This document shows positions 20,033 to 36,084 of a DNA stretch of 64,000 nucleotides, piece after piece. How positions within the stretch are numbered: position 1 is the stretch's first letter; every line of letters starts with the position of its first letter. Both the position numbers and the translations under genes were made by a program. The stretch is taken from NCBI GenBank assembly GCA_022627495.1, contig JAKEGJ010000016.1, positions 16,995 to 80,994 on the forward strand, written 5' to 3'. Origin of the DNA: Candidatus Micrarchaeota archaeon. Lineage in GTDB: Archaea > Micrarchaeota > Micrarchaeia > Anstonellales > Bilamarchaeaceae. The notes under the pieces were generated by a model. It searched no databases, had not been told where the DNA came from, and worked only from the letters and a program-made list of their open reading frames with translations.

Positions 20033-23000
20033 TTATCCGCTCAGCGTGCAATTGATGTCGTAATCCCGAAGCGGCAGGTCGATGCCGCAGAAGGTCCCGA
20101 TTTCGCTCACCGTCTTCGGGTCGCCGAGGTTGCACTCCATATCAGGGTCCCCGCTCTTCGAGAAAACAATAGGCTTGTTTATCGAGTTCTGGTAAGCGTC
20201 CTTGACGTAGGTATAGCTCCGGTTGTTGTTGGGCGCGACCAGGCAGCACTTGTCCGGCTTCGGGATGCCGGCAATGACGTCCAGGAAGATGTCCGAACCG
20301 ACCTCGTCCATCGGCCTCGGGCCTACTGTCTGCACGGTCCCGTTGCTGTATTTGAGGGTGCAGGTGTACATCTTGCCCGTTTCGTTGCACAGAGTGCACT
20401 CGCCCGCCCCTGAATCGATGACTATCCCGTCCGGGCACCTGGCCTCGTCCTCCGGCATTCCATCCGGCACGCTGCAGAGGGCGCCGTTGTCGCACATCTT
20501 CGGGTCCCGGTGGAGGGTATTGACGGAATACGCCGAGCACACTCCGGTGCCGACCCGATCCAGGCTGCTGCACCTGGTGCAGTTCATGGAGTCGACAGAA
20601 TTCACCCTGGAGAAGAAGGCCAGCGGCGCGCCGGTGGTCATTGTCTGCATGGCCGACTGCATCGCGCAGAACTTCTCGCCCTTGTGCCCCAGGCCCGATG
20701 AATCGACGCTGACTATGCCGGTGTCCGTGCCGCTTGCCGCGCGGGCCGGGGCGTAGATTATGCCGATTAGGCCGAACTTGACCATCTCGTCCTGCTTCCG
20801 GACGATTTTCTCGAACAGCACCTTGTAATTGGCGTCATTCCAGTAGCCGTCGTTGCTCCTCACGTTGAGCCCTACCAGCATCGAAGGCTTCCCCCTGGAC
20901 TGCAGGGCCACCCTTCCAAAGGAGGCTATGTCGTCGGCTATGGCATCGCTCCGGTTTTCAGCCTGCGCCAGCCCCGAGAACACCGAAGAATGGCTTGAGA
21001 CGGGGTAGTCGAATGTGACCATGTCCACCGCGAATGCCGCCCGCGAATCCGAGAGCACGGAATTCAGGGAATCCCTGAAGCTTTCGTTGCTTGGCGGGCT
21101 GTCCACGTGGAACGCTGTGAGGCAGCCGAAGCACCGCTCGTGGATTATGGATGAGCGGTCGATGATTTCCTCGATTTGCACATCTGTCGCATCGCCGCTG
21201 ATGTGGTTGACTATGACGACCACCGCCCCCATCTCGCCGAAAAGCCTCTGGAAGTCGTACTGCGAAAAGTTCTCCGGCGCCGATTCGTAGAACAGCCAGA
21301 ATCCTTCCAGGTCCGAGTCCGGGTTGCGGATGTTCCAGTTGCTGGCGTCCGTCATGTCTATGACCGGGAGAATGCCGGATTTCATGTAGTTGCCCATCCT
21401 CTCCTTGAGTATGGTGGCCTCCGGGGACGTCCTCGGCGAGCCGATGCCCCCGATGGACTCCTTGTAGTCGCCCACGTCAGTTATGCGGGAATTGACGCAC
21501 GAGACGTTGTCCGTCACAGTGAATCCAGACCAGAATTCGAAGCTGGTATCATATGTCGCCGTGCAGACGCTCTCGAGATTCGCCGGTGTCGTGTTCTCGA
21601 CGTTCGCAGTGTACGCGGGCATGTAGACGCGGGGCTCGGCGGTGATGGACTGGAAGGCGAGGGTGGAAGTCGTGCAGGGCTCGCACCAGCCGTATGTCCT
21701 GGTTACCGGCATGTAGTCCGACTCGTCTATCGCGCAGTTGCCGAGCGCGCCCGTGCCGTCCCTGTACTTGAACAGGTAGATGTGCTGGCTGAAAAGCAGG
21801 TCATACGAGAAGGTCAGGTCCGTTGGCATCCACCACCAGATGACCGTCCTGCGCAAATCGCAGCTGCTGGTCCCGGCCGAAGTTTCCATGCGCTCGGAAA
21901 ACACGTTGTTCCTGCGGAGCACCTGGGGGCCCGAACCGCTCATGTGGTAGGACATGGATTCGAAATAGTCGCTTCCGGTGAAACTGCTCTCGTATAGGCC
22001 CTTGTTGTAGTTCAGCACCCAGGGCATGGAGGATATTACCACGTCCTGCGGCTGGATTTCTGAGCCGCAGCCGTCGTCGAAACCCCCGTTCGTCATCGAT
22101 TTCAGCCTCTCCTTGAAGTACGGGCGGAACGCTGCCATGAGGGAGTCCCAGTCCGGGTCGTCGATGTTATCCAAATCCACCCGGACGTAATCGGCCGTCT
22201 CTCTGGCGTCGGTTGAAGCCGGAGTGCATGGCTGGCTTGCCGGGTTCGGGTCGTCCAGTGCGCACCAGTTGCTGCATGAGGTGTCCATGCCAGGGCACAG
22301 GTTCCGGCAGGCGTTCCAGCATCCGAATTCGTCTTCGGGCGGATAATCGCCTTTCACCGGGAATTTCTGCGTAGTGTTGATGCCGCAGTTCTTGACGAAG
22401 AGCATGTTCTTGAAGTCGGATGGCGTTGCTATGGCGTACCCGATAATCTTGTTCCCGTTGTATACCACGTCATTGTCGCCGGTCTTGCCGAAGAACACTA
22501 TCCCTCCTGCAGGCGGCCTGTAAGCGCTTTCTGAGACATAAGAGCACAGCACCCACTCGTCCTGGTTGTCCTCGGTCGGCTCGCCGTAATCGTGCGTGCA
22601 GTACTTGCGGTATGTGTAATACGAGGAAGTCCAGGATGCGGTGTTCGTCAGCGTCCTCGCGGACCCGGTGTATTTCGTGTAGAACTGGCCCGAGTTGAAC
22701 CCGTCCCAGAAGGCGTCGAGCGAATCCTCGTTGTCTCCGGTCACGGAACCGTAGCCGAAGGGGTGGTTGTAGCCTTCGTTGACCTCCACGTGCTGGGGCT
22801 TTGCCGTCACCGTGGCATATGTGAATGAGGGCGGCTGGCCGCCGGAGCCGGCCGTCACGGATTTCGTGGGGGCGCACACGACCTTGGTCTTCCCGTTCTC
22901 GTCGCTGGTCCTGGCGCAGTCAGCGACCACTTCGAAGCCGCCGGATATGCCAGGCACCGTGAGCAGGACCGTCCTGGAATAGAACTGGGTGTTGCACGCG

Positions 23001-24100
23001 CCGGAATAGCACTCGTTGCCGCGCGAGTCGCATTCGAAAGGCGCCCTCGTCGTTGAGGAGCCGTCGAGCCCGTACATCGTTGAGGCGTGGGCGATTGAGA
23101 GCTCCCGCCTGTAATACTCCTCGTCAATCCTCTTGAAGACATCGTCCTGGTTTACGGACGCGCCGCCGTAGAAATAGAATCCGTGCATCTTATCATAGTT
23201 CGCGGCCCAGTCCTCCCGCGCATGGTGGGCGAACTTGTAGTTGGTGGCGTCGGGAACGACCGGGTTGAATGTGAATCCGACGCTTATATATGATGATTTC
23301 GGGGCCGTGCCCTCCGCGAATCCGAAGGGGTTTGGCGTGCCGAATGCGCCGGCGGCGTCATTGAGGCAGTTCTGCGTTATCCTGGCGTTGGGGTTGTACT
23401 CCGTCTTGGAGCCTGTGAGGTAGTTCATGTACCTGTCGATTAGCCCGGCCTCGCCCGAACCGGAATTTATGTTGCAGTACTTATCGGAAAGGGGCAGGTA
23501 ATACTTGTATTGGTCGAACTCGTCCATGGAGCCCCCGACGCCTATCCTGAAGACGTTTATCGTTGAGCTCGAGCTTTTCATCACCTGGCGCAGCTTCGCG
23601 TCCATCGGGAGGAACCTGCACTGGGCGTTGTAGAACTGGCTCGCGCCGCCTTCCCCGGTATCCGGGGGGATGTTGCCCGAAGAGGCCTCCACGCTCGAAT
23701 CTGGGTTGCTGGTGTCGCTCCCGCTCGTCTGGAAGCCCGGCGCGAAGCGCGGCTTGTATGAGAACTCGCCGCAGACCATGGTCGTGCAGTTCTGGGAGAT
23801 GCATGGCTTGATGTCGTCCTGGGTGCAGAGCGGTATCAGGAACGTCCGCTCGCCCGTAGCCCCGCCCAGGTCTATCGTGACATTGCAGTGGCCGCTCGTG
23901 TTGTAGGCCGCGTCGCTGCTGTTGCAGGGGCCGTTCGTCTGGCCGATATAGCTCTTGTTGGTGAAGTCGGTGGTGTTGTAGAGGACGCAGCCCTGGCTGA
24001 GGTTCTCCTTGAGGCAGCAGCCGAGCTTCACGACCGGCTGCAGGCAGCCTGCCGCGAACAATGCCAGCAATATAACCAAGACCGTCAGCGCTTTTCCCAT
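20033..24100 (-). CDS. Giant (1355 aa) Cys-rich, sequon-rich extracellular lipoprotein, no recognised domain
   Basis: Lipobox-like N-terminus (LLALFAAGC), dozens of Cys throughout, many N-x-S/T sequons, and no further TM. Its start is 1 nt after the stop of the preceding membrane-protein gene. Confidence 0.8.
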   Translation of the reverse strand: MGKALTVLVILLALFAAGCLQPVVKLGCCLKENLSQGCVLYNTTDFTNKSYIGQTNGPCNSSDAAYNTSGHCNVTIDLGGATGERTFLIPLCTQDDIKPCISQNCTTMVCGEFSYKPRFAPGFQTSGSDTSNPDSSVEASSGNIPPDTGEGGASQFYNAQCRFLPMDAKLRQVMKSSSSTINVFRIGVGGSMDEFDQYKYYLPLSDKYCNINSGSGEAGLIDRYMNYLTGSKTEYNPNARITQNCLNDAAGAFGTPNPFGFAEGTAPKSSYISVGFTFNPVVPDATNYKFAHHAREDWAANYDKMHGFYFYGGASVNQDDVFKRIDEEYYRRELSIAHASTMYGLDGSSTTRAPFECDSRGNECYSGACNTQFYSRTVLLTVPGISGGFEVVADCARTSDENGKTKVVCAPTKSVTAGSGGQPPSFTYATVTAKPQHVEVNEGYNHPFGYGSVTGDNEDSLDAFWDGFNSGQFYTKYTGSARTLTNTASWTSSYYTYRKYCTHDYGEPTEDNQDEWVLCSYVSESAYRPPAGGIVFFGKTGDNDVVYNGNKIIGYAIATPSDFKNMLFVKNCGINTTQKFPVKGDYPPEDEFGCWNACRNLCPGMDTSCSNWCALDDPNPASQPCTPASTDARETADYVRVDLDNIDDPDWDSLMAAFRPYFKERLKSMTNGGFDDGCGSEIQPQDVVISSMPWVLNYNKGLYESSFTGSDYFESMSYHMSGSGPQVLRRNNVFSERMETSAGTSSCDLRRTVIWWWMPTDLTFSYDLLFSQHIYLFKYRDGTGALGNCAIDESDYMPVTRTYGWCEPCTTSTLAFQSITAEPRVYMPAYTANVENTTPANLESVCTATYDTSFEFWSGFTVTDNVSCVNSRITDVGDYKESIGGIGSPRTSPEATILKERMGNYMKSGILPVIDMTDASNWNIRNPDSDLEGFWLFYESAPENFSQYDFQRLFGEMGAVVVIVNHISGDATDVQIEEIIDRSSIIHERCFGCLTAFHVDSPPSNESFRDSLNSVLSDSRAAFAVDMVTFDYPVSSHSSVFSGLAQAENRSDAIADDIASFGRVALQSRGKPSMLVGLNVRSNDGYWNDANYKVLFEKIVRKQDEMVKFGLIGIIYAPARAASGTDTGIVSVDSSGLGHKGEKFCAMQSAMQTMTTGAPLAFFSRVNSVDSMNCTRCSSLDRVGTGVCSAYSVNTLHRDPKMCDNGALCSVPDGMPEDEARCPDGIVIDSGAGECTLCNETGKMYTCTLKYSNGTVQTVGPRPMDEVGSDIFLDVIAGIPKPDKCCLVAPNNNRSYTYVKDAYQNSINKPIVFSKSGDPDMECNLGDPKTVSEIGTFCGIDLPLRDYDINCTLSG

Positions 24101-24101
24101 G

Positions 24102-25124
24102 TCATATCACTTTGCCTACCATTTTTGTCAGCTCGAACGTGTCCCCGCCGAGTACCGACATCATGTACCTGACAAATACCATGGTCATGAAGAATGCCAC
24201 GAGGGGATGCAGCATGAGCGTCACGTACGATTTCGAAAGGTCGTTCCTCAGGCTGTCGAAGGTCAGTCCGGCGCTGCTGCCGAAGCCGGCGCTTTCAAGC
24301 GAGGTGAGTATCGAGACGGCGCTCGTCATCGTCGGGTAGCAGAGCGGCTGCGTCTGCGCTGTGTTCATCGCGGCCGGAAGCGGCGTCGCGACAAATCCCG
24401 GGTCGAGGAGCACGAAGAATATCGGGAATATGAAGTACATGCCGATGCCGAGCGCGATGAAGAGGGCGCCCGGGCCGCGCGTGATGTAGAAGCTGCGGAG
24501 CAGGATGCCGACCGGTATGAAGACGTGCAGCATGTTTATGCGCAGGTATTCCAGGAGGGACGACTGGGCATTGAGGCCGATAAGCATGACCGTCGCGAGG
24601 TTGTTGGTGATGCGGGTGGTCTCGGTGGTCCGGTAGAGGCCAGTGAACCAGTCGCCCTTGATGAACGTGACGCCGAATATGCTGCCGGCCATGTTTATCG
24701 CGTTGAACTCCAATGCGGTCATGCCCGAGCTGGTGAGGCCGTCCTGGATCGCCGCCACTTCGGCGGCCCTGCTCTGGAGCCTGCACCGTATGGCGTAATA
24801 CGCCTGGTCCATCGTGGAGTTGGCGGTGGTGCCGATGTGGATTGATTCGCCGCCGCAGGCGACTTCCCCGTGGATGAGGCCCTGCGTTATCTCCATCGCG
24901 CTTCCCACCATGGCCACCAGGAATATGGCCATGAAGGCGGTCGCGGCCGCCTGCAGTATCTCCGATTTGGCAAAGGCTTCCAGCTCCCGGACCGAGAACG
25001 CCCTCCCCACCATCAGCAGTATGGTATGGAAGAGCACCGCTGCAATCACCGCCACCAGGGAGAGCGGGAGCCAGTTGGCCCATGTCCCGTAGAAGCTGCT
25101 GATTGAGAGCGCAAGGAAAGCCAT
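24102..25124 (-). CDS. Polytopic membrane protein, paralogue F of the six-member family
   Basis: 340 aa carrying the shared signatures FAKSEILQAA, FIPVGILLRSFYITRGPGALFIALGIG and the tail SVLGGDTFELTKMVGKVI. Confidence 0.8.
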   Translation of the reverse strand: MAFLALSISSFYGTWANWLPLSLVAVIAAVLFHTILLMVGRAFSVRELEAFAKSEILQAAATAFMAIFLVAMVGSAMEITQGLIHGEVACGGESIHIGTTANSTMDQAYYAIRCRLQSRAAEVAAIQDGLTSSGMTALEFNAINMAGSIFGVTFIKGDWFTGLYRTTETTRITNNLATVMLIGLNAQSSLLEYLRINMLHVFIPVGILLRSFYITRGPGALFIALGIGMYFIFPIFFVLLDPGFVATPLPAAMNTAQTQPLCYPTMTSAVSILTSLESAGFGSSAGLTFDSLRNDLSKSYVTLMLHPLVAFFMTMVFVRYMMSVLGGDTFELTKMVGKVI

Positions 25125-25127
25125 GCA

Positions 25128-26213
25128 TCACACCAGTTGGGTTATCCTACTTAAATCTATCTCCTCGCCGTAGAGGCGCGCGATGTATCCCACGCTCGCA
25201 ATGGTCGCGAGCAGGGCAATGCTGGGGAAGAATATCGCGGCAACGAACGCGTTGGAGGCGAAGCCTATCGCCCCGGACATGTTCTCTATGTTGACGCCGC
25301 TGCCGTAGCAGCCGCCCCTGTCGAAATAGCACCCTTTTACGAAGCTTTCGCCCCCGGTGCTCATCGCTAGCATGTCCCCGCCGTTCACGTAGCCCTCCAT
25401 CCTCTCCTCGTTCGTGTTGTACGTGCTCATCGGCTCGGAAAGCGGGGTGTACCCGTTGTCGGCATCCACGAGGACGTTCCTCATGAGGTAGAATACTGCG
25501 AGCAGGAACGGATAGACTATAAGGAACGATATGGCCAGGGCCACGAGAAGCGAGCCGAATGACCGCATATACGGCATCGAGCGCATGAAGACGCCAAGCG
25601 GAAGGAACAGGAACACGAAGCCCTTGTACACGAAGAGCAGGATGAAGATGAAATTCAGCGACATGAAATGGGCGATTATTGCTCCGTTGAAGAATATGTT
25701 CATCGCCGCGGTCTGCACGGCGTATCCGCCGAGCGGCTGCTGGCTCACTCCGGAATACCCGAAGAGGCATCCCCAGCCTATCCTGCCCGTGCTCAAATCG
25801 CATATGAAGGCGTTGAAGAACGAAAGCGTGGTGTACGATTCCAGATGATAGCGGACAACCGTCAGCGCGTTGTGGGAGTATATCGCCGCGTCGTTGAGGT
25901 ATCCCCTGGCCGCCCCGTAGATGTCCGGATTGTCGGCTGAGGCCGGCATGTCGAAGATGGCGGCTATCTCGTTTATCTTTATGGAGCAGAACGTGTTCAT
26001 GGTCGTGATTATGAGGAACACCGAGACAGTCGAGACGATGAACTGGACCGCCTCGGTCTTGCTCCAGAGCGTCAGTTTCGCGTTGCTCGTTGCGGTACCC
26101 GCCATATAAGCTATGCCCAGCAGGGCGGCCAGCGAGCTTCCTGCATATGCCAGGAGCGGAAGTATGTTCTCGCTGAAAAACGTCCCGAATTCAGGGTCGC
26201 AAAGGAATGCCAT
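25128..26213 (-). CDS. Polytopic membrane protein, paralogue E
   Basis: Start set at MAFLCDPEF (ATG at 26213, sharing one nt with the upstream stop, TGATG). Signatures are WSKTEAVQFI, FLPLGVFMRSMPYMRSFGSLLVALAIS and the tail RLYGEEIDLSRITQLV. Confidence 0.8.
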   Translation of the reverse strand: MAFLCDPEFGTFFSENILPLLAYAGSSLAALLGIAYMAGTATSNAKLTLWSKTEAVQFIVSTVSVFLIITTMNTFCSIKINEIAAIFDMPASADNPDIYGAARGYLNDAAIYSHNALTVVRYHLESYTTLSFFNAFICDLSTGRIGWGCLFGYSGVSQQPLGGYAVQTAAMNIFFNGAIIAHFMSLNFIFILLFVYKGFVFLFLPLGVFMRSMPYMRSFGSLLVALAISFLIVYPFLLAVFYLMRNVLVDADNGYTPLSEPMSTYNTNEERMEGYVNGGDMLAMSTGGESFVKGCYFDRGGCYGSGVNIENMSGAIGFASNAFVAAIFFPSIALLATIASVGYIARLYGEEIDLSRITQLV

Positions 26214-27220
26214 CAGACGAACCTCGAGATTGCGCTTACGTCGACCTCCGCACCGGCAAGCGATGTCAGCGTCCGGAGGCCAGTCGACATCATCAGCAGG
26301 GCCAGCACCGGGCCAAGGGTGGCCTGGACCAGCATGGTGAACAGGTACACGCGAAGGTTGTCCCGGAGGGCGTGGTAGCCCCGTACCGCGTTCGCCGCAT
26401 TGCTGTCCCCGGACCACCACTCCTCGCCGGTCGCTCCCGGGTTGCATTCCAGGGTCACGTTCTGGAGCCCGGCCTGGTACGGCGCTGAAAGCGCGTCGTC
26501 AGCGGCTCCGGGCGGGTCCAGGAACGTCGCCCCGAGCATGTCGTTGAATATGACGCCCATCGGCAGAAGTATGTGGAGCGATATGGCGAGGGCGATAAGA
26601 AGCCCACCCGCGCCGCGCGTGAACTTGAAGGTGCGCAGGACTATCCCCAGCGGGAGCAGGAACGGGAACGCGAAGGCCGTGGAAAGCTCTATCAGCCTCT
26701 TCATCGTGTAAAGCTCGCCCACGGCGAATCCGGTTATGCCGCCTGCCATGGACAGCGGCGCGGAGAGCATGGTATAGCTCCCGCATCCGCTCACCGAGTA
26801 TCCCATCCCGAGGATGCTGCAGGAGCTGGCCTTGGAGCCTTCGATTGCAGCGTCATGGTCGGTCTCTGCTATGCTGTCCATCAACGCGGTCACGTTCGCG
26901 AGGGTGATGTCGATGCTGGCATTCGCGGCGCCCTGCAATGTCGTCGAGCCGCTCCCGCTGAAAGCAGGATTCGCTGATATGGCGTTCAGGATGGAATCCC
27001 CGCCGACTAGGAGGGCTATCATCACCATCATCGCAATCAGCTGGAAGAACTCCTCCTTTGCCGTCATCTGGAGCTCATTGATGCCAAAGCCCATGCCTAT
27101 CATGTATATGATGCCCAGTATGCCGGCGGATGTCATTATCGCCACTGCCGCCGTGCCCTGCCATGCCGCGAACGCGACCGGCGCCATCAGGATTATCAGC
27201 AGGGCAGTGAGGGCTTTCAT
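26213..27220 (-). CDS. Polytopic membrane protein, paralogue D
   Basis: 335 aa with a signal-like N-terminus. Signatures are TAKEEFFQLI, LLPLGIVLRTFKFTRGAGGLLIALAIS and the tail SLAGAEVDVSAISRFV. Confidence 0.8.
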   Translation of the reverse strand: MKALTALLIILMAPVAFAAWQGTAAVAIMTSAGILGIIYMIGMGFGINELQMTAKEEFFQLIAMMVMIALLVGGDSILNAISANPAFSGSGSTTLQGAANASIDITLANVTALMDSIAETDHDAAIEGSKASSCSILGMGYSVSGCGSYTMLSAPLSMAGGITGFAVGELYTMKRLIELSTAFAFPFLLPLGIVLRTFKFTRGAGGLLIALAISLHILLPMGVIFNDMLGATFLDPPGAADDALSAPYQAGLQNVTLECNPGATGEEWWSGDSNAANAVRGYHALRDNLRVYLFTMLVQATLGPVLALLMMSTGLRTLTSLAGAEVDVSAISRFV

Positions 27221-29292
27221 CAGAACACCTTGGCTAGGCCCGGGATCTCTATGTCCCCTCCGAGCATTCCGGACAGGCCTTTAATGAACACGAGCGTGGC
27301 GACTATGTTGAAGAGCGGCAGGACGTATGCAGGTATCATCAGTTTCGCCACATTCACGATTTCAGGCTTGCCGACCAGGCCGTCCCCCCCGATTTTCGTG
27401 TACTCCCCGGGCTTCTTCGCTGGCACGTTGCCGGTGTTGCCGCACTGGTCCCCGCACTGCGTGTTTATCGGCGGGCTGTAGACGTACGACTCTTCGGTGA
27501 AAAGGCAGCTCTCGCACGTGTTCCTGGGTATCGCCATCCTGTAATCCTTGGGGCACTGGTCCACTGAGCATCCGCCTGTTATATAATCGTCCGGCAGGGT
27601 GGAATATACCAGCCTCTTGACTGCGGGGCACGAGCCGCAGAACTCCGATGGCGAATTCAATGACGTGATATCGCTCATCCGTATCGTGCAGGTGTCATAG
27701 GTTGCGTGGCACGTAGAGCATGAGGCGAGAAGGTTGCCGTCGCCGTCCTTGCACTGCGCCGGCAAATCCGCCACGGCCGCGTCGCGTATCCGGCATTCGG
27801 CCGGGCACTCGACGCAGAGTTCGTTGCACCTGCCGGTTTCCGGAATCACCCAGACACATGACTGGCTGGCATCCAGGCTTGCAGGGCAGTATGCCGCCAG
27901 GACGCATGCCGCGTAGTTGCTCCCTTCGATGTCCACGGTGGTCGGCCTCCAGTTCAAATCGCTGCGATGGGCTATCCGGCAGTCAAAGCGGGAGCCTGCG
28001 CATGCCGGCGAGTCTGTGAAGCAGTCGCTTTTCATCGGCGGCACTATCTTGCATGAATCCGGGCACTTGTTGTATTCGTTGAGGTCGAACGTCGGCGAGG
28101 TCGTGTCCACGAGGCGCTTGACCTTGCACTGCTCCGGGACCGTCTGGCAGAGCGCCTCAACGGCCATGTTCGAGCAGTTGCCCGATGCCGCAGGATAGGG
28201 AAGCTCCCTGCAGTCCAGGCCGCAGCCTGCCATCCCCCCGTAGAAGCACGACGTCACCATCTTCCCGTAGGCCGGGCTGTCCGGGTTCGAGCCCGTCGCA
28301 GAGGCGAGGGTGCCGGCAATTATCTGCGTGGCCTTGTCCATGTCCTCTTCGGAGAACGCGTTATACACGTCCGGCGGGGACGTGATGACGCCTCCGTCGA
28401 AATACGCGCGCGGGGCGGACACGCCGCACTCGGCCGGACAAAGCGGGTCGTCCGGGTTCATCAGCTTGTCGCCGTTTACGGCCATGTCCAGCGTCACCCA
28501 GTCGAAGATGTACATGCCGGGGAAGAAGAACATGCAGCCGGCGGCAATCGCTATCAGCAGCCCGCCGATTTTCCGCGTGAAGTAGAAAGAGCGCGCGACG
28601 ATGCCTATCGCAAGAATCACCGGCGCCATCTTGAAGCATATCTCGGTTACGAAGAACTTCTGCGCCTCCATTGAAGATAGCAGGTTGGTATAGTACTCAA
28701 ACAATATCGCGTACATGTCCTGGTCGAGCATGTACTGGCCCGCCACCGTGGTCGTGAACCCGGCCTGGAGGCAGAAGAGGGGCAGGAACGCGGTCGTGCA
28801 GTAGAGGCCGAGCCGTATGCTGGCCGCATGCGCCGCGTCCATGTTGTTGATGAGGACGTCTTTCGCCCCGTCCTCGGCGGTGCTCACGTAGTCCTGGAGA
28901 TACATCACCGTAACGTTCTGGAGGCAGCTTGAGCCGATGCTGGTGCAGGCCGGCACATCCAGGCCGCTCTGCACGACCATGGCCACAACAAGCATGTCTA
29001 TCAGGACGATTGTGGCCATGAGCACGATGATGATGATTGCGTTCGCGATTATCTGGACCATCTCGTTGCTGGCCCACGCCTTGACTTCCGGCATGTCCAG
29101 GCCGATACCGATTGCATATCCGATGCCCACGAGCACGACTGAGAGCATGAGCGAGAGGATTGCCAGCACCTTCCAGTCGCGGGCGATTTCGAGGGGCGAG
29201 CTCTGCGTCTGCTGTCCGAACTGCGTTTCCGTTACCGTGGCCGCGATGGCGAATGCCGAAAACAGCAGGAGCAGAAGCATTGCCTTTCTCAT
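27220..29292 (-). CDS. Polytopic membrane protein, paralogue C, with a ~370-aa Cys-rich extracytoplasmic insertion
   Basis: 690 aa. Signatures are WASNEMVQII, IGIVARSFYFTRKIGGLLIAIAAG and the tail GMLGGDIEIPGLAKVF. The loop after the signature (aa ~270-640) holds about 32 Cys by hand count, many as CxxC or Cx3C. Confidence 0.8.
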   Translation of the reverse strand: MRKAMLLLLLFSAFAIAATVTETQFGQQTQSSPLEIARDWKVLAILSLMLSVVLVGIGYAIGIGLDMPEVKAWASNEMVQIIANAIIIIVLMATIVLIDMLVVAMVVQSGLDVPACTSIGSSCLQNVTVMYLQDYVSTAEDGAKDVLINNMDAAHAASIRLGLYCTTAFLPLFCLQAGFTTTVAGQYMLDQDMYAILFEYYTNLLSSMEAQKFFVTEICFKMAPVILAIGIVARSFYFTRKIGGLLIAIAAGCMFFFPGMYIFDWVTLDMAVNGDKLMNPDDPLCPAECGVSAPRAYFDGGVITSPPDVYNAFSEEDMDKATQIIAGTLASATGSNPDSPAYGKMVTSCFYGGMAGCGLDCRELPYPAASGNCSNMAVEALCQTVPEQCKVKRLVDTTSPTFDLNEYNKCPDSCKIVPPMKSDCFTDSPACAGSRFDCRIAHRSDLNWRPTTVDIEGSNYAACVLAAYCPASLDASQSCVWVIPETGRCNELCVECPAECRIRDAAVADLPAQCKDGDGNLLASCSTCHATYDTCTIRMSDITSLNSPSEFCGSCPAVKRLVYSTLPDDYITGGCSVDQCPKDYRMAIPRNTCESCLFTEESYVYSPPINTQCGDQCGNTGNVPAKKPGEYTKIGGDGLVGKPEIVNVAKLMIPAYVLPLFNIVATLVFIKGLSGMLGGDIEIPGLAKVF

Positions 29293-30287
29293 CCGACCAC
29301 CCTCAGTCCCTTGTTCACTGCGCTAAGGAACGTTATAAGTATGGCTATCGTCAAATTCGGCAGGAATATCGCCTGCGGAATCAGCCTCGCGACCATCCAG
29401 AACCCGTCCGGATTGGAGCATGCGGTCTGGGGCGCATCCATGCAGCTGTAGCTGTCGAGCACGTTGTCGCATACCGCCGAGGCGAACTCGTTGCAGTCGC
29501 TAAGCACCGCGTCGTACATGGCAAGGTTGAACACGAACATGAACGGCACTATCACATACAGCCCCAGGGACAGCGCTATCAGCATGTTCCCCATCATCCT
29601 AGTCGGGATGAAGAACCTGAGCACAAACGCCGTGGGAAGTATCCACCGGATGACATTCTCGTTGATGAAATCGAGCCCGATTTTCTGCATGCTCAGGCTC
29701 ATCAGCGACGGGATGAGGAACGTGTTCAGGATGATGTCGTACTGGTTGGACACGACCCTCCGGTAAGCCCCCGGAATCGCCGTGTAGGCGTTGAGGAGCG
29801 GTATCGCCAGGCTGAACGAGAACGTGGATTCCATCAGGTAGTCCAGGTAATTCTGTATGTAGCTCTTCGAAAGCCTCGTGGCGTCGTTCTTGACCACCTT
29901 CAGGTAGCACGACGCCGTGCTGTTCAGGCCAGAGCCCTCGCCCAGGTAGCAGTTCGAGGCAAGAGGCCCCAGGTTCTCGAATGTGCCGTGGTAGAAGAAA
30001 CTGATGAGCTCGCACGAGAAAGCCAGGATGCCGCTGAAGGCTATGAGCATAAGGATTGAGAAAAACAGGTGGTACGCCTCGTCCTTGGCGAAGACCACAT
30101 AGTGCGTGTGCCCGAGCGTCGTGCCTATCATGTACGCGAGTGCGATTATGACCGCGGTGAAGCCGATTACCGCGCCAATCAGGAGGCCCTGCTCGGAAAG
30201 CACAATGGCCGTCGCGTCGGAAATGCAGCTTGCGTGCGCTGCGGCAGCCAGCAGCATGACGATTAGCGCAGCTTTCGTGTGTGTCAT
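29289..30287 (-). CDS. Polytopic membrane protein, paralogue B
   Basis: Start set at MTHTKAAL, giving an ATGA overlap with the upstream stop at 30284-30287. Signatures are FAKDEAYHLF and ILPTAFVLRFFIPTRMMGNMLIALSLG. Confidence 0.8.
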   Translation of the reverse strand: MTHTKAALIVMLLAAAAHASCISDATAIVLSEQGLLIGAVIGFTAVIIALAYMIGTTLGHTHYVVFAKDEAYHLFFSILMLIAFSGILAFSCELISFFYHGTFENLGPLASNCYLGEGSGLNSTASCYLKVVKNDATRLSKSYIQNYLDYLMESTFSFSLAIPLLNAYTAIPGAYRRVVSNQYDIILNTFLIPSLMSLSMQKIGLDFINENVIRWILPTAFVLRFFIPTRMMGNMLIALSLGLYVIVPFMFVFNLAMYDAVLSDCNEFASAVCDNVLDSYSCMDAPQTACSNPDGFWMVARLIPQAIFLPNLTIAILITFLSAVNKGLRVVG

Positions 30288-31486
30288 ATGAGCCTCTGTA
30301 CGCCTGCCATGTACCACTCGCCCCCAAGGGCGCTGGACAGGCTTCTTGCCCCGGCCATCGTTATCGTCCCGATTATTATGAAATCAATATATGCAACCAG
30401 GACGAGGTTGTTCACCGCGCGGAGGAGCCCGAGGACCTCCTTGAACACATCCTCGGCATAGGAATGGGCCATGCCCGCGCTGTATGCAATTTCCCAGATG
30501 AGGAGGAGCACGGTGCTGACTATCTGGAATATGAGCTGGATGAGGGGGTAGACCACCTGGTGCATGAGGGGCTCCCTGCACGGCTGCTGGTAAAGCCCCA
30601 CCGTCCACGGTGTCAGTATGAGCGGCAGGCATACTATCGCCGAGAAAATCTGCTCGGTAACAAAAAGCAGGCTCCGGACCGGCACGCTCGAGCACAGGAA
30701 CTCGCCGAACACCATGGCCCAGGGGTTCGCGTCGAGCTTGTTCAGCTTCATCGTGGGGTTCGGCATCGTTATCGTGCTGTTGAGGGCGCTGGCGACCAGG
30801 ACCGAAAAAGGCAGGAACACGATTCCGGCAATCGATAGCGCAATCAGCGTATTGCCGAGCTTTCTCGAAAATGGTATCAGCCGCGCTATGAAGGCTATGG
30901 GGAGCAGTATCAATGGGACCACGATTTTCAGGAACGCGAGCAGCATGCGCAGGCTTTCGGAGAGGAATATCGCGTTCGTGAGGGCCTGGGACGCCAGGCT
31001 GAGGGGCCCGAGCATGATGGCGATGCCGCCGAGGGTGTTGGTCGAGTAGTTTATCGAGAAATACCACACAGGGATGTTGAGGTACGGCGAATACGTCGCC
31101 GCGGACCGTATCTGGCCGGCGGCTTTGATTATGTATTCGAACGCGCTGTCATACGTGCCGAGCCAGCCGTCCAAGACTCCCTGCGCGGATGCGATCATGT
31201 TCTCGTCGCCCGTCAGCGCGAACGCGACGCCGTTCGTTCCCGTCACCGCGGCTATTACGATTATTATCAGTATTATGGCCGCGAAGAACTCGCGCATCTC
31301 TGTCTTAACCCAGGCATCCAGCCTCGGGTCGGAGAGCGAATGCGAGAGCATGTTCGCCACGCCCAGAAACGCCGCTACTATGACCGCCATGACGGGCACT
31401 GCGAATGTCAAATCCAGCGGGGCTGCGGCCGGGAAAGAGAGTGGCGCAATGGCGAAGAGGAATAATGCCAGTGACCGCAACTGCAT
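30284..31486 (-). CDS. Polytopic membrane protein, paralogue A (first gene of the operon)
   Basis: 400 aa with a signal-like N-terminus. Signatures are WVKTEMREFF, LLPIAFIARLIPFSRKLGNTLIALSIAG and the tail SALGGEWYMAGVQRLI. Confidence 0.8.
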   Translation of the reverse strand: MQLRSLALFLFAIAPLSFPAAAPLDLTFAVPVMAVIVAAFLGVANMLSHSLSDPRLDAWVKTEMREFFAAIILIIIVIAAVTGTNGVAFALTGDENMIASAQGVLDGWLGTYDSAFEYIIKAAGQIRSAATYSPYLNIPVWYFSINYSTNTLGGIAIMLGPLSLASQALTNAIFLSESLRMLLAFLKIVVPLILLPIAFIARLIPFSRKLGNTLIALSIAGIVFLPFSVLVASALNSTITMPNPTMKLNKLDANPWAMVFGEFLCSSVPVRSLLFVTEQIFSAIVCLPLILTPWTVGLYQQPCREPLMHQVVYPLIQLIFQIVSTVLLLIWEIAYSAGMAHSYAEDVFKEVLGLLRAVNNLVLVAYIDFIIIGTITMAGARSLSSALGGEWYMAGVQRLI

Positions 31487-31506
31487 GCCTCTAATTCCGA
31501 GTCACC

Positions 31507-31558
31507 CATTTAAATGTTTTCCATGGCGCCGGGCCTGCCGGATAGTAAATTAATAAAC
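31507..31558. promoter_or_regulatory. Divergent promoter region with two TATA-like boxes
   Basis: CATTTAAATG (31507-31516) is centred about 25 nt upstream of ATG 31486 on the minus strand. GTAAATTAATAAAC (31545-31558) lies about 27 nt upstream of ATG 31579 on the plus strand. Both spacings imply short or no leaders. Confidence 0.4.
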
Positions 31559-31680
31559 TTATCAAAACTATCATTATCATGAAATCCGCCCCCATCGTCC
31601 TAATCCTCCTTGCATTCGCATCAGCCGCTCTGGCCTCGGACTGCGTCTCCTGCGAGCAGATGGCGGACCGGCCGCAGGCG
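31552..31680 (+). repeat. Direct repeat copy 1 (promoter-proximal region plus first ~33 codons of the 1399-aa gene)
   Basis: Aligns by eye with 35947-36075 at roughly 85% identity with one 1-nt indel. The aligned ATGs are at 31579 and 35974. Confidence 0.8.
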
Positions 31681-34600
31681 CGCATCCTCACGATAAACGA
31701 CGACGTGGCGTACACCCTCGAAATGTACACCTATTATGAGAACCTGAGCGCGACGCCGTCGCGCCAGCCCATCAACAACACTATAGTTATTATAGAGCTC
31801 ACCAACTCGACCGGCCTCAAGGAGATTTACAAGACGTATGTGAATTCAAACGGCTCCTCAAGGTTCAATTTCAACACGTGGAAGAACGGATGCATAACGT
31901 TCAAGGTGCTCTACTGCCCCTTCTGCAACCCTGATTCGCCGGAATGCGGCTTCGACGCCTGCATGAACTTCTCGCTGATAGGTACCGACAAGCACAGCGC
32001 GGCTGAGCTTGACACGGCGCCGGGCAGCTTTGCGGAATCGCTGCCCGCCAGCACGGAGCTGTACCTGCCCGCCCTCGACCAGCTGACATACTGCCCGCCT
32101 CCGCCTTCCATGGCAGCGACGCCGTCGCTTTGCCTTCCCATCCTAATAATCTTCTCGCTCCTCTCAGGGGCGCTTTACCTGACAGGCCGGAACCCCTGGG
32201 CAGGATTCAATATCGGCGGCGCGCGCATCGGCAAGCATATCCGCTACCAGGCCCGTGGCCGCGGCTTCTCGCTTGATTTGAAGTCCCTTGCGATGTCGAT
32301 ATCCAGCGCGAAGGGGGAGACGGAGATAGACGAATCAACCGGAAAGAGGAAAGGCGAGTCGACCGAGCCGAAATGGTTTGGATACAGCATGGTCCGCGAC
32401 CTTAAGGATGTCGTCGTAGGAACCAAGGGGGCGGGAGGGAGCGGCAGCGCCACGCAAGTGAGCAAGGACCTTGCATTGGGCGGCGGCAGGCGCGCCAGGC
32501 CCGGTATCGCAGGGGCGTTTCGGCAAGCAGGACGGGATGGCCGGGCGAGTACCGCCCGTGTGTTCGGAGGCCAGGTCGACAGCAAAGGCAAGGCGGTCGG
32601 ACCCGGGAGCGGACAAGCCGCAGGGAGGGCCTTTGGCGCCGGCGAGATAGCCCGCCAATGGGGCAACGAAGTGCTCATCAGCCTTGGCAGGATTGGCGCT
32701 ACGCTCTATGACTCATCATTCTTTTCGTCATTGCTCGGCACGTTCGACAGTTCCCTTCGGAATCTTTCCTCCAGGCTGGAGAGCACCCGTTTTGTAAGCG
32801 AGCGGCAGAATGCCGCGATGCTGATAGCCGATGCCGAACGCCTGTCCGAGGTTGCGGGCAGGGAATACGCTCCGGGAATCGCCCAACTTCGCGAAGGCTC
32901 TGGCCAGGTAGACGAGGATGGAAGCCGGACCGGAAGGTCGGGGTCGCGTTATATCGAGATAAGCAGCGAGGGGCTCGGGCTTCCGGCGGGCGCAACTGTG
33001 GTCGCAACAGTCGGAACGATAGGGCCGAACGGAGAATCCACAATAACAGTCCATGTCGGGACAGGCAGCGGAGAAGGCCGCATCCTGACCAATTACACGA
33101 TGCAAAATGGCACGGTGGTGGGCCTTGAGCGCGTGATGAACGTGGGCAGCCCCACCGGGGAGCAGATGGGCATCAATTTCAGGATGGGACCTAACGGGAG
33201 GCTCGAAGCGTCGGGCATCACATCCTACAGCAACACGCCGGGCCAGCCGCCAGAGCGCATGGAGGTGCGCAGGGACGATCAGGGCCTCATCATTGAAGTC
33301 GGAAACATAACAGTTCAGCGCAACGACCGGGGCGAGGTCACCGCAATGTTCGACCGCAACCTGCCCGCATCGCAGTCAGGGCAGCCCGGCTTGCAGGTCC
33401 CCACGGGCACAACCCTGCATGAAGCGGTGACCAACCTCATAAGTAACGACGGCAATAACATCAACCAGATGCAGGGGATTATAGCAATTAATGCCGCCAA
33501 CATGAAGGAGATGGCAAGCAGGACTATGGAAACCGCCAATGCCAGCCTTGAGAGGACAAGCCAGATGTACATGGCGCAATATGGCATGGTCGAAGTGACC
33601 GACCATAACGTCCTGAAGGTCAGTGGCGAAGGCGAACGCGGTTCCGACGGAACAATACGGAGCGACGGCCGGGGCGACATGACAATCCGAGTCATCGACT
33701 CCGATTACACTCCCTCAGGCCAGCCTGGCAACCGCTCCGGCCTGGCTAACGGAACGACCATAGAGCTAAGAAACGACGCTTATATCTCCGCAACGGACGC
33801 ATCCGGCCGCAACATCCTACAGCGCGACCAGGAAGTGCATGTCGGGGACCGCACGATGTACCAGACTTCCCTCACCGGTACCAACATCGTTCTTGACACC
33901 AACACCTCCCGGGGGCAGACAATCGAAGCTACCAACGTCATTGAGCACGTCGGGGAAGTGAACCGCCTGGCAGGGGACCTGAGGCAAAGCTTCCAGGCCT
34001 ACCAGACGTCAATGCTTCTGGAGGCGGGCCGGCAGTTCGGGGAGCAGCGACCTGGGCTCGCAGCAGCTTTCGAGTCCGCTACAACGGACCGGAGGCAGGG
34101 CGGCGAAGCACTGAGCGCCCACCTGCGCGAGAGCGGGGTTCCGGATGACGTAGCCGCAGCCGCCGGACTGCTTTATGGCTCTACCACCATAGGATACCGC
34201 GAGACAAGCTTTGCGGCAGATGCGCACAGGGGAGCCGAGGAGTACAGCAGGGCGTTTTCGACAGCAATAATGACCGGAGACCATCGCGTTGACCAGTCCG
34301 ATTTGGCGGCAATGAGCCCGCGGGCCCGGGCCTATATGGAGGCCAGGGATACCGTACAGGCCGAATTCGAGCAGCGGAATCCGGGCTCGCATTTCAATCC
34401 GGACGACCCGCAGGTTTCCCGCATGATTGAGGTCCGGATGCGGCCGGCAGTCGAAACGATACGTTCTGCAGAAACGCAGGCAATCAGCCAGGCCCAGTCC
34501 AGGGATCCGGCAATCCGCCAGCAGGGCGAGGATGCCATACGGGCCCTTGGCATGGTGCCGAGGGATTACCAGCTTCCTGAAGGAACAACCCTCTGGCAGG

Positions 34601-35778
34601 CGGCGGCGGACAGGAGGGAATCAAATTACCGCTCGGAGATGGGGGATGTCGTGGGAGACCGGCTCAGGGGGAACACGGGAGCAGTCATGGCTTCGCATCC
34701 CGAGCTTATTGTGGCAGGAGACGAAACGCAGCTCGGCCGGAGCGTCGCGACAACAATGCTCGGATTGGGCCCGCAGCTTGCGGGTATGAGCGATACGGAC
34801 GTGCGTATGCGGGTGCAGGAGCATGTCAATTCTGACCCATCGATAAGCCCAGAAGACAGGGCGAACGCATCGAGATACGTAGACAGATACCTGGATGGCG
34901 CACGGAATGTTGCTCGGGATTTCGGCCGTGCAGAAACTCTTGTGTCGAGGGAAGTAGTATCCAACCAGACCTCATTCATGCCGAGTTCGCATGATCAGAC
35001 ATTCGAGCGCCTGCTAGGGGAGCAGTACGTTGCCGGGCGGCCCGAGTTCCAGCAGAGGCCGGTCCCGCCGCAAGACAGCTCCGAGGCGAGAGAGTTCATG
35101 GAAAGGACCGGCACCTCCCCGGACCAGCTGACGCAAAGGTGGGACGATAGCGAGTATAGGCGCGTGCAGGCACAACAGAACAACCTTGTCGTAGATGCCA
35201 GCCGCGAATGGGGCGCGGCGATGGGTGAGGCCCGGCGGTCGCTTCCCCCTGATGCCAGTTCCGCGGACCTGAGGGACTATGCCATGGGCCGCATGCTTAC
35301 GAACTATGCCTCCCAGGCGGCGATGCCCGACGGCTCTGTCGGCCCGAACAACCCTATGGCCCTGAACGCGCACCAGACCTACCTCGGCATGGTCGCAGGC
35401 GGCCCGTCCGATTCCAATTCAAGGGCATTGAACGTACTCAACACCGGATGGAGCGGCGACCTCTCGAGCCCGGATTACGCCCCGCCCGAGCCATTACGGG
35501 AAGGCTCGCATGTGAGGGGGGCAGTATTCGACCCTATGGCTTTGAGCGCGTTCGCCGTAGGGACTCGGACGGTACTTCTCGCCTCTGAAGCGTATGGAAA
35601 CGATGTGCCGCAGGAAGTTTACGCCGGGGGGACCCGTGCAATTTCCGAATACAACCGCGGCAACCATGCCGATGCATCGAGGCGTTTCCTATCGTCCTCT
35701 ACTGCTGCGAGTTCATTTATAGAAGAGCGGCGCCAGCGCGAGATGGAAGAAGCCGGAGATTCCTTGAGCGGTAGGTAA
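31579..35778 (+). CDS. Giant (1399 aa) type-I membrane protein: signal peptide, ~160-aa Cys-rich ectodomain, one TM, ~1190-aa Cys-free tail
   Basis: MKSAPIVLILLAFASAALA signal and nine Cys up to the TM (LCLPILIIFSLLSGALYL). The TM is followed by the basic stretch GGARIGKHIRYQARGRGF (positive-inside). I see no Cys after the TM, no Walker motif and no recognised domain. Confidence 0.8.
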   Translation: MKSAPIVLILLAFASAALASDCVSCEQMADRPQARILTINDDVAYTLEMYTYYENLSATPSRQPINNTIVIIELTNSTGLKEIYKTYVNSNGSSRFNFNTWKNGCITFKVLYCPFCNPDSPECGFDACMNFSLIGTDKHSAAELDTAPGSFAESLPASTELYLPALDQLTYCPPPPSMAATPSLCLPILIIFSLLSGALYLTGRNPWAGFNIGGARIGKHIRYQARGRGFSLDLKSLAMSISSAKGETEIDESTGKRKGESTEPKWFGYSMVRDLKDVVVGTKGAGGSGSATQVSKDLALGGGRRARPGIAGAFRQAGRDGRASTARVFGGQVDSKGKAVGPGSGQAAGRAFGAGEIARQWGNEVLISLGRIGATLYDSSFFSSLLGTFDSSLRNLSSRLESTRFVSERQNAAMLIADAERLSEVAGREYAPGIAQLREGSGQVDEDGSRTGRSGSRYIEISSEGLGLPAGATVVATVGTIGPNGESTITVHVGTGSGEGRILTNYTMQNGTVVGLERVMNVGSPTGEQMGINFRMGPNGRLEASGITSYSNTPGQPPERMEVRRDDQGLIIEVGNITVQRNDRGEVTAMFDRNLPASQSGQPGLQVPTGTTLHEAVTNLISNDGNNINQMQGIIAINAANMKEMASRTMETANASLERTSQMYMAQYGMVEVTDHNVLKVSGEGERGSDGTIRSDGRGDMTIRVIDSDYTPSGQPGNRSGLANGTTIELRNDAYISATDASGRNILQRDQEVHVGDRTMYQTSLTGTNIVLDTNTSRGQTIEATNVIEHVGEVNRLAGDLRQSFQAYQTSMLLEAGRQFGEQRPGLAAAFESATTDRRQGGEALSAHLRESGVPDDVAAAAGLLYGSTTIGYRETSFAADAHRGAEEYSRAFSTAIMTGDHRVDQSDLAAMSPRARAYMEARDTVQAEFEQRNPGSHFNPDDPQVSRMIEVRMRPAVETIRSAETQAISQAQSRDPAIRQQGEDAIRALGMVPRDYQLPEGTTLWQAAADRRESNYRSEMGDVVGDRLRGNTGAVMASHPELIVAGDETQLGRSVATTMLGLGPQLAGMSDTDVRMRVQEHVNSDPSISPEDRANASRYVDRYLDGARNVARDFGRAETLVSREVVSNQTSFMPSSHDQTFERLLGEQYVAGRPEFQQRPVPPQDSSEAREFMERTGTSPDQLTQRWDDSEYRRVQAQQNNLVVDASREWGAAMGEARRSLPPDASSADLRDYAMGRMLTNYASQAAMPDGSVGPNNPMALNAHQTYLGMVAGGPSDSNSRALNVLNTGWSGDLSSPDYAPPEPLREGSHVRGAVFDPMALSAFAVGTRTVLLASEAYGNDVPQEVYAGGTRAISEYNRGNHADASRRFLSSSTAASSFIEERRQREMEEAGDSLSGR

Positions 35779-35946: not shown

Positions 35947-36075
35947 ATAAACCTGTCAAAAGTAACTATAATCATGAAATCCGCATCCGTTGTACTAATT
36001 CTGCCTGCATTCGCATCAGCCGCGATAGCCTCGGACTGCGTTTCCTACGAGCAGATGGCGGGCAGGCCGCCGGCG
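35947..36075 (+). repeat. Direct repeat copy 2, about 170 nt after the stop of the 1399-aa gene
   Basis: The sequence is ATAAACCTGTCAAAAGTAACTATAATCATGAAATCCGCATCCGTTGTACTAATTCTGCCTGCATTCGCATCAGCC...GAGCAGATGGCGGGCAGGCCGCCGGCG. Confidence 0.8.
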
Positions 36076-36084
36076 ACAAGCTGA
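35974..36084 (+). pseudogene. 36-codon remnant of a paralogue/allele of the 1399-aa gene (MKSASVVLILPAFASAAIASDCVSYEQMAGRPPATS*)
   Basis: Translated by hand. It is homologous to residues 1-~33 of the giant protein and ends at a TGA 4 nt before the PadR start. Confidence 0.6.

Follow-up and report, generated by a model that had tools for sequence, protein, structure and literature searches.

A predicted type-I membrane protein with a lysine-depleted, cysteine-free tail, encoded beside a conserved membrane gene array of Micrarchaeota

The gene P0001 lies on the forward strand (positions 31579-35778) of a 64,000-nucleotide stretch of DNA from a Candidatus Micrarchaeota archaeon (GenBank assembly GCA_022627495.1, contig JAKEGJ010000016.1; hereafter the window, meaning the whole stretch analysed) and encodes a protein of 1399 amino acids (aa). 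We reason, with a probability of about one in two, that this protein is a bitopic type-I subunit of a Micrarchaeota-specific envelope machine, in which its conserved N-terminal module (N-module) would dock onto partner proteins and its folded tail would form a cytoplasmic platform. The other parts of such a machine would be the six polytopic paralogues and the giant disulfide-rich lipoprotein that are encoded next to it. The docking part would be the conserved N-module, i.e. a glycosylated, disulfide-bonded ectodomain, a transmembrane (TM) helix and a juxtamembrane motif: the ectodomain would contact either the lipoprotein or those loops of the paralogues that lie outside the cytoplasm, the TM helix and the motif would engage the paralogues on the inner side of the membrane, and a Lys-rich, flexible linker would lead to a folded tail of ~1050 aa that could act as a cytoplasmic platform or adaptor. 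The fast-evolving tail occurs in two states, Lys-free and Lys-normal, and both can be found on tandem genes whose docking modules are identical; P0001 represents the Lys-free and Cys-free state. We infer the complex membership, the platform role and the side of the membrane on which the tail lies; a preliminary description of the window, made from the sequence alone, had suggested a scaffold or signalling partner.

DPANN archaea (Micrarchaeota included) live by touching host cells, and the proteins that build these contacts are almost all unidentified; the dependence of Micrarchaeota on host cell contact has been documented (PMC11329633). P0001 defines an order-wide core family tied to a conserved set of membrane genes, divides into a conserved candidate docking module and a fast-evolving, predicted folded tail of no matched fold, and reveals an extreme lysine desert that toggles between paralogues independently of guanine-plus-cytosine (GC) content.

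The functional link to the six-paralogue operon, proposed in the preliminary description, was examined by co-occurrence across relatives, and the synteny held in nearly all of them: in these, a single contig carries homologues of P0001, of the 690-aa paralogue and of the lipoprotein within ~12 kb. The missing co-occurrence that would have broken the link was therefore not observed, and gene neighbourhood could hardly argue for it more strongly. Within its own genus the gene is transcribed divergently from the array (the relative's locus L016 has the same layout as the window), and in other families it is co-directional with the array and directly follows the lipoprotein gene, after a gap of 129 nt in genome G033 and with an overlap of 19 nt in genome G010. 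The copy numbers of gene and array match, and genomes with two arrays carry two copies of the gene (in the source genome, on contigs C16 and C3). At the scale of the phylum, 61 of the 201 sampled genomes had a match, which amounts to essentially all genomes of the same order; weak matches outside the order cover the TM and juxtamembrane region only. The features of the locus, with the parts of the protein in the order in which they are encoded, are as follows.

20033-31486, minus strand: six polytopic paralogues (400, 342, 690, 335, 439 and 340 aa) and a 1355-aa Cys-rich lipoprotein, as open reading frames (ORFs)
31487-31578, neither strand: divergent intergenic region of 92 bp with two TATA-like boxes, read from the sequence
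31579-31635 (directly preceding 31636), plus strand: signal peptide, residues 1-19, MKSAPIVLILLAFASAALA, predicted to be cleaved after A-L-A and before S
31636-32103, plus strand: ectodomain, residues 20-175, predicted beta-sandwich with a Cys-knotted appendage, 8 conserved Cys, 5 sequons and a PPPP hinge
32104-32184, plus strand: TM helix with flanks, residues 176-202, PSMAATPSLCLPILIIFSLLSGALYLT, from hydropathy, with an AlphaFold2 (AF2) helix at 185-202
32185-32265, plus strand: basic juxtamembrane motif, residues 203-229, GRNPWAGFNIGGARIGKHIRYQARGRG
32266-32595, plus strand: proximal tail, residues 230-339, rich in Lys, Gly, Ala, Ser and Arg, with 10 Lys in ~110 aa
32596-35775, plus strand: distal tail, residues 340-1399, with no Cys, 2 Lys and 98 Arg, predicted folded and multi-domain
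32905-33354, plus strand: beta-rich domain 1, residues ~443-592, AF2 strands at model positions 43-192, predicted local distance difference test (pLDDT) ~70-89
33586-33903, plus strand: beta-rich domain 2, residues ~670-775, AF2 strands at model positions 270-375
33931-35775, plus strand: all-alpha region, residues ~785-1399, ~25 AF2 helices, pLDDT mostly 75-93
35947-36079, plus strand: remnant copy of the 5' end of P0001, from DNA alignment and a tblastn match, directly upstream of a PadR gene

The ORF (ATG start, 1399 codons in the window sequence) was found exactly where the preliminary description had placed it, and the signal peptide, Cys-rich segment, PPPP, single TM segment and basic stretch that it had listed are all present. 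Hydropathy reaches TM level in only two segments, residues 1-26 and ~176-204; the first of these peaks, together with an AF2 helix, marks the signal peptide, which was found in all homologues. The nine Cys of the protein (residues 22, 25, 105, 113, 116, 123, 128, 172 and 185) comprise eight in the ectodomain and C185 within the TM helix, and the PPPP occupies residues 173-176. Seven of the ectodomain Cys are invariant (C22, C25, C105, C113, C116, C128 and C172), and C123 is kept in at least 90% of the members. From an alignment of 28 sequences AF2 predicted the ectodomain as a beta-sandwich (pLDDT 90-95 over residues ~30-175), for which Foldseek returned adhesin, FN3 and immunoglobulin (Ig)-like repeats (as well as C2), all of them generic, with a best E of 3.6e-3.

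The conservation of the family culminates at the membrane. All invariant columns of the alignments (27 and 28 sequences) fall within residues 22-228, the TM helix contributing C185, P187, L195 and G197, and the most conserved segment of the whole protein is the juxtamembrane motif GRNPxxGFNxGGxxxGxHxRYQARGRG. Within it, G203, N205, P206, G213, G218, Y223, R226, G227 and R228 are invariant in both alignments, and N211 is invariant in the one of 27 sequences and present in at least 90% of the members in the one of 28. In the AF2 monomer model the motif has a pLDDT below 50, which points to a segment that probably binds a partner.

The N-out/C-in topology is well supported by sequence features. 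P0001 has what a type-I protein should have, namely a signal peptide, one further TM segment and positive charge after it, and the placement of the tail in the cytoplasm, which the preliminary description had derived from the positive-inside rule, agrees with the distribution of both charges and sequons over 26 family members. In these, Lys and Arg amount to 0.19 in the 15 residues before the TM helix and to 5.7 in the 30 residues after it (with Asp and Glu at 0.04), and sequons are 2.5-fold enriched in the ectodomains (111 observed vs 45 expected) and neutral in the tails (127 observed vs 130 expected); P0001 itself has 5 in the ectodomain vs 10 in the 1170-aa tail. Cys makes up 3.9% of the N-module vs 0.15% of the tail in the 24 members that bear the motif. 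The extracytoplasmic hallmarks (Cys, sequons and the Ig/FN3-like beta-sandwich) are, hence, confined to the N-terminal domain, and the tail would lie on the cytoplasmic side of the membrane. A protein of the same genome that has only the TM and juxtamembrane motif in common with P0001 ends in a CxxC..CxxC zinc ribbon, and zinc ribbons are normally a cytoplasmic feature. Sequon density was rejected as a general indicator of compartment for this genome (enrichment is only 1.4-fold in the lipoprotein and 0.4-fold in the Cys-rich loop of paralogue C).

One argument of the preliminary description was weakened, i.e. that the partition between a Cys-rich and a Cys-free part supports the topology. By itself it is a weak one: the ordinary non-membrane ORFs of the genome contain 1.4% Cys (and 4.9% Lys), so that a kilobase without any Cys is out of the ordinary in the cytoplasm as well. 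Cys-freeness here seems to mark a special class of very large proteins, some of which may leave the cell.

Beyond the N-module the family diverges steeply. A word-indexed search recovered 26 homologues, of which 4 were full-length (37-51% identity) and the rest shared only the first 15-44% of the protein; over 27 members, identity to P0001 is 0.48-0.57 across residues 51-250 and 0.08-0.24 beyond. The tails measure 650-1250 aa across the family. When residues 230-1399 were searched exhaustively with phmmer against 1.84 billion representatives, 3 matches were obtained (all of them close relatives), and a hidden Markov model of the close tails found no match in the distant ones; hhalign aligned the two tail groups with each other at a probability of 89% (E 2e-6), collinearly over 705 columns. 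By this collinearity the tails are homologous and extremely divergent, and not swapped modules. The gene is intact and conserved: 37 of 41 relatives match in stop-free open frames of 900-1600 aa. BLAST detected no internal repeats in P0001 and, among the other giant ORFs of the genome, no homology except to the paralogue on contig C3. Literature searches returned no description of the cluster or of the family.

The contrast between module and tail is most pronounced in the relative's locus L016 (10001-17193), where two tandem members, P0007 and P0008, have N-modules that are 100% identical over ~220 residues, and tails that align end to end and have diverged well below the ~38% overall identity. 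One of the two tails has a normal Lys content (4.1%), whereas its counterpart is Lys-free (0.4-0.6%). The pattern suggests gene conversion, or a very recent duplication, limited to the putative docking module. A rule of one Lys-free and one Lys-normal copy per genome was discarded, as both tandem copies of genome G006 are Lys-free.

The tail had been described as low in complexity and then helical; AF2 gives a different picture, with a K-rich linker of ~110 aa, two beta domains and then an alpha part. The proximal tail (pLDDT mostly <50) is probably a flexible linker. Residues 401-1399 fold in the model with a mean pLDDT of 73.5 and a predicted TM-score (pTM) of 0.58, from an alignment of 7 sequences; the second beta-rich domain is of lower confidence (pLDDT ~40-70). 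The presence of both beta and alpha domains in 401-1399 indicates that the tail is, by prediction, a folded multi-domain protein and not a low-complexity one. In agreement with the preliminary description, no catalytic pattern (Walker A, HEXXH, DEAD, GxSxG or HNH) was found in P0001, and for none of the 27 family members is the tail accounted for by a known domain (Pfam, PDB and fold searches). All 27 are without a Pfam match, and no meaningful match came from scanning P0001, distant family members and the seven neighbouring genes against Pfam, NCBIfam and PHROGs. PDB was searched by sequence, with P0001 alone and with a profile, in both cases without a match, and the tail model found no Foldseek match below E 0.02 or with a probability above 0.41 in PDB and BFVD.

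The claim of a Cys-free tail was borne out for residues 186-1399: these 1214 aa hold no Cys, for which the chance is 6e-8 at the proteome frequency of 1.36% (long ORFs). It is a tendency of the whole family, as homologue tails contain 0-7 Cys (0.15% overall, vs 3.9% in the N-module). Equally sharp, and overlooked in the preliminary description, is the absence of Lys from residue 339 onward. All 19 Lys of P0001 lie within residues 2-338 except K643 and K680, so that residues 339-1399 contain 2 Lys vs ~52 expected at the proteome frequency of 4.88% (P for at most 2 Lys in 1061 aa = 1.4e-20), and Lys-free runs extend over residues 339-642 (304 aa) and 681-1399 (719 aa); the distal tail has 98 Arg. 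Both runs exceed the continuous Lys-free region of at least 150 aa by which a lysine desert is recognised (PMC13696103). Neither the ectodomain (~3% Lys) nor the linker (10 Lys in ~110 aa) is depleted.

The state of Lys was surveyed in a DNA-based sample of 19 family genes. Distal tails are bimodal: 12 of the 19 have at most 0.84% Lys, at a locus GC of 0.42-0.65, and the other 7 have 3-8.5%. All 19 have Lys-rich linkers (8-12% over the first 120 aa after the motif) and Cys-poor tails, the Lys-free tails keeping linkers with 8% Lys, and the paralogue on contig C3 of the source genome has a Lys-normal tail. Placed on the tree of the N-module, the Lys state changes at least 6-8 times and clusters no more than shuffled labels do. 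A single origin of the Lys-free state was rejected, since well-supported branches require no fewer than 6 changes. So was GC bias as the cause of the loss, since GC is the same inside the desert (0.608) as in the rest of the gene (0.603) and Lys-free tails occur at GC 0.42-0.65. A Lys state that is bimodal, independent of GC, limited to one zone and repeatedly switching means that Lys loss is selected, zone-specific, recurrent and reversible. Among the genes of the genome are those for a ThiF-type E1-like protein and for subunits of the 20S proteasome, on account of which an internal Lys-directed tagging system is possible.

Known lysine-desert proteins (toxin A chains, and ubiquitin-system, actinobacterial and mycobacteriophage proteins) share with P0001 the combination of a desert and a lysine cluster, a partition described in a review (PMC13696103). 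P0001 differs from them in being archaeal and membrane-anchored, in the size of its desert (~1060 aa), in being Cys-free as well, and in that its desert is switched on and off between close paralogues, independently of GC. Why proteins purge Lys is an open question (PMC13696103), for which tandem Lys-free and Lys-normal isoforms on identical anchors offer a natural control.

Other Lys- and Cys-poor giants are encoded in the same genome. Four ORFs of 7297, 2903, 2922 and 1377 aa (C23:17116-39009, minus strand; C25:594-9305, C25:12217-20985 and C29:43868-48001, plus strand) have at most 0.17% Cys, 0.4-0.5% Lys and 10-12% Arg, and, together with smaller neighbours of 819, 624 and 649 aa (C25:9348-11807, C29:48386-50260 and C29:50341-52290), form runs of consecutive genes; the composition of the class ranges over Lys 0.15-0.64%, Cys 0-0.37% and Arg 7-12%. 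The giants have no Pfam domain and no sequence similarity to P0001. A GDSL/SGNH lipase domain (PF13472, E 5e-20) was identified in the Lys-poor 819-aa protein, whose gene stands between those of two giants (L012:9348-11804, on G000:C25). This protein, in which a signal peptide is not obvious, could scavenge lipids for an organism that relies on its host for them. Three Lys-poor ORFs of 2922, 1377 and 535 aa (starting at C25:12217, C29:43868 and C20:34162) begin with Tat-like signals (..SERRRRAVFGNRF.., ..VRRPGFFGKFLL..AAAQ and ..SARREAGII..AHAQ), and TatC is encoded at G000:C24:614-1249; part of the Lys- and Cys-poor class may be exported after folding. Further giants of the genome (4279 and 2960 aa) are Cys-poor and Lys-normal.

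The composition of the tail is also what invites another explanation, namely that the tail is cargo, cut near the Lys-rich linker and exported through a channel formed by the paralogues to the cell surface or to the host. This would turn it from a resident scaffold into a pro-effector on a tether, or into a contact module, and the absence of Lys and Cys would shield it from Lys-directed tagging and degradation or permit its transport in an unfolded state. The boundary at residue ~339 is sharp, with a Lys-rich linker on one side and a Lys- and Cys-free folded region on the other, and the three-zone pattern recurs in 12 of the 19 relatives over a GC of 0.42-0.65, with the at least 6-8 switches of Lys state on the N-module tree. 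The tail diverges fast on a conserved anchor, as host-exposed proteins typically do, the genome has further giants poor in Lys and Cys (one a GDSL lipase, three with Tat-like signals), translocated toxin subunits are a documented case of lysine deserts (PMC13696103), and Micrarchaeota need contact with a host cell (PMC11329633). We nevertheless consider this unlikely: standard topology places the tail in the cytoplasm, the tails show no sequon enrichment, 7 of the 19 relatives and the second copy of the source genome have Lys-normal tails, and no cleavage motif, secretion ATPase, or effector or toxin domain was found. To our knowledge, there is also no precedent for a type-I anchored protein with a re-exported C-terminal kilobase. 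Extended to the whole locus, the same idea would make the array, the lipoprotein and P0001 an undescribed archaeal contact-dependent export apparatus, with the distal tail belonging to a class of giant Lys- and Cys-free proteins handed to the host (the 7297, 2922, 2903 and 1377-aa ORFs and the 819-aa GDSL-lipase protein would be among them), and with the Lys-free and Lys-normal isoforms on an identical module as host-exposed and resident versions, respectively; such an apparatus strikes us as quite unlikely. The envelope subunit with a cytoplasmic platform, which we prefer, has difficulties of its own. In a strictly cytoplasmic scaffold it is not obvious why both Lys and Cys should have been purged or why divergence should be so fast, and the Tat-like signals on other Lys- and Cys-poor giants hint that this composition marks proteins that leave the cytoplasm. 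Neither Pfam nor NCBIfam revealed an ATPase family or an energising component among the eight large genes at 20033-35778, the AF2 model of the tail was built on a shallow alignment (7 sequences), and it is conservation alone that suggests a machine.

P0001 would be very unlikely to be an independent surface receptor or signalling protein whose adjacency to the array is mere neighbourhood conservation. Its small Ig-like ectodomain, single TM segment and large cytoplasmic part would suit such a role, as would its own promoter, divergent from the array in its own genus; the tails, however, contain no kinase, cyclase, HAMP, PAS, HTH or other signalling domain in any member, and the combination of a conserved ectodomain with a variable tail is the reverse of that in usual receptors. 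Moreover, the gene lies within the operon in other families, overlapping or directly following the lipoprotein gene, and its copy number follows that of the arrays. Polymorphic toxins (Rhs, CdiA, LXG) likewise combine a conserved N-module with a variable C-terminus, tandem copies and a 5' remnant, and one may picture P0001 as a toxin-like or mobile cassette, with an N-terminal trafficking module, interchangeable C-termini and an orphan cassette in the remnant downstream. Its hypervariable C-terminus on a conserved N-module, the promoter and first 33 codons repeated past its stop codon, and the tandem copies of L016 (100% identical N-modules, divergent tails) fit this picture, which we find scarcely credible: the variable parts are collinear, remote homologues of ~1000 aa and not unrelated domains, no member has a toxin domain, and the place of a candidate immunity gene is taken by PadR, nucleotide kinase and ScpB genes, as in the relative. 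It is, besides, a core gene of the whole order and not a patchy island, without PHROGs matches and with a GC equal to that of its flanks. An identity as a polymorphic toxin was rejected on the collinearity of the tails, the lack of any toxin family in the members and the downstream PadR/AAA_18/ScpB genes.

The nearest known system in gene content is type IV secretion with multiplied VirB6 (TrbL, PF04610), e.g. the Rickettsiales Rvh system, which likewise has an array of paralogous polytopic proteins, a bitopic protein and a lipoprotein. Some rickettsial VirB6 paralogues carry extensions of ~1000 aa. The six paralogues gave no match to TrbL/VirB6 (PF04610; Pfam at E<=0.01, and NCBIfam), the eight large genes at 20033-35778 none to a VirB4/VirD4-type ATPase (P0001 being without a Walker A motif), and for a VirB8/VirB10-like subunit P0001 and 26 relatives gave no Pfam match, no PDB sequence match and, as folds, generic sandwiches only. 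P0001 is also predicted to be N-out/C-in with its bulk inside the cell, the opposite of VirB8/VirB10, and the organism is an archaeon. Type IV secretion was rejected, none of its defining features having been found. By these negative searches and the conserved neighbourhood, P0001 and its array would lie outside the known kinds of system. In the micrarchaeon Microcaldus variisymbioticus ARM-1, a 21-nm barrel complex of unassigned proteins sits beneath the S-layer and docks host nanotubes (PMC11329633). The barrel is a large envelope complex specific to Micrarchaeota and the P0001 cluster a Micrarchaeota-wide set of envelope genes, and it is speculative to see the barrel as what the cluster builds; the cluster gives cryo-electron tomography and proteomics of cultured Micrarchaeota a concrete candidate, including for this barrel.

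The array has counterparts elsewhere. In the source genome, a second complete cluster (G000:C3:94997-109006) encodes a lipoprotein, six paralogues and a 910-aa family member in the same order, 37-54% identical gene by gene, the tail of the family member having 4.7% Lys and no Cys after the TM segment. A third, distant six-paralogue array (G000:C26:30941-41714) has behind it the gene of a Cys-rich secreted protein, truncated where the contig ends, and a 1586-aa protein at G000:C24:33871-38631 consists of a signal peptide, an ectodomain, a TM segment, the motif 'YFSGKSP', a long tail and a C-terminal zinc ribbon. Beside a distant array of genome G037 (locus L009, contig C1) a divergent gene encodes an 1867-aa protein with the same plan as P0001: a signal peptide, an ectodomain of ~190 aa with 5 Cys, a TM segment with a Cys, a Y-A-G-R-N-P motif and a Cys-free tail of ~1630 aa. 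The 1586-aa and 1867-aa proteins share the motif (pairwise E 2e-5), and Y-x-[SA]-G-[KR]-[SN]-P characterises a second family (~1600-1900 aa) beside a second type of array, suggesting that the entire system was duplicated at an earlier date and now exists in two types.

Upstream of P0001, the 92-bp divergent gap of the preliminary description was measured at 31487-31578, reaching up to the minus-strand ATG at 31486. Two TATA-like boxes were read from its sequence, TTTAAAT at 31509-31515, assigned to the minus-strand array (ATG at 31486), and TTAATAAA at 31550-31557, assigned to P0001 (ATG at 31579). Both lie ~22-29 nt from their own start codon, a spacing that suggests leaderless divergent transcripts from the two putative promoters. 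Downstream, the genes for PadR, an AAA_18 nucleotide kinase and ScpB occur in the same order as in L016, and the GC of P0001 equals that of the flanks. The remnant at 35947-36079 (~130 bp) repeats the TATA box and the first ~33 codons of P0001 at ~85% identity; because L016 has an intact second family gene at the same place, it is the vestige of a deleted second tandem member. It may now supply the promoter of the PadR gene.

The source genome is a metagenome-assembled genome of Micrarchaeota (DPANN) of 1.45 Mb in 29 contigs, assembled from a sediment metagenome, and the neighbouring genes are archaeal (ELP3, HerA, ScpB, Lrp/AsnC and a LonB-like protease). As for public reads, the P0001 locus was found in the source assembly only: RNA runs were absent, and two sister runs, of which 3% was sampled, yielded no reads of it. 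The six paralogues and the lipoprotein matched no Pfam or NCBIfam family, and a HerA-type gene (DUF87/HAS-barrel) lies at 11576-13093, ~7 kb from the cluster. Within the array, paralogue E (25128-26447, minus strand) is a 439-aa ORF that shares 235 nt with paralogue D. Arg, Pro and Gly abound in its first ~78 residues, its L016 counterpart has 352 aa, and its true start is probably the internal Met at MAFLCDPEF, which would give a protein of ~361 aa.

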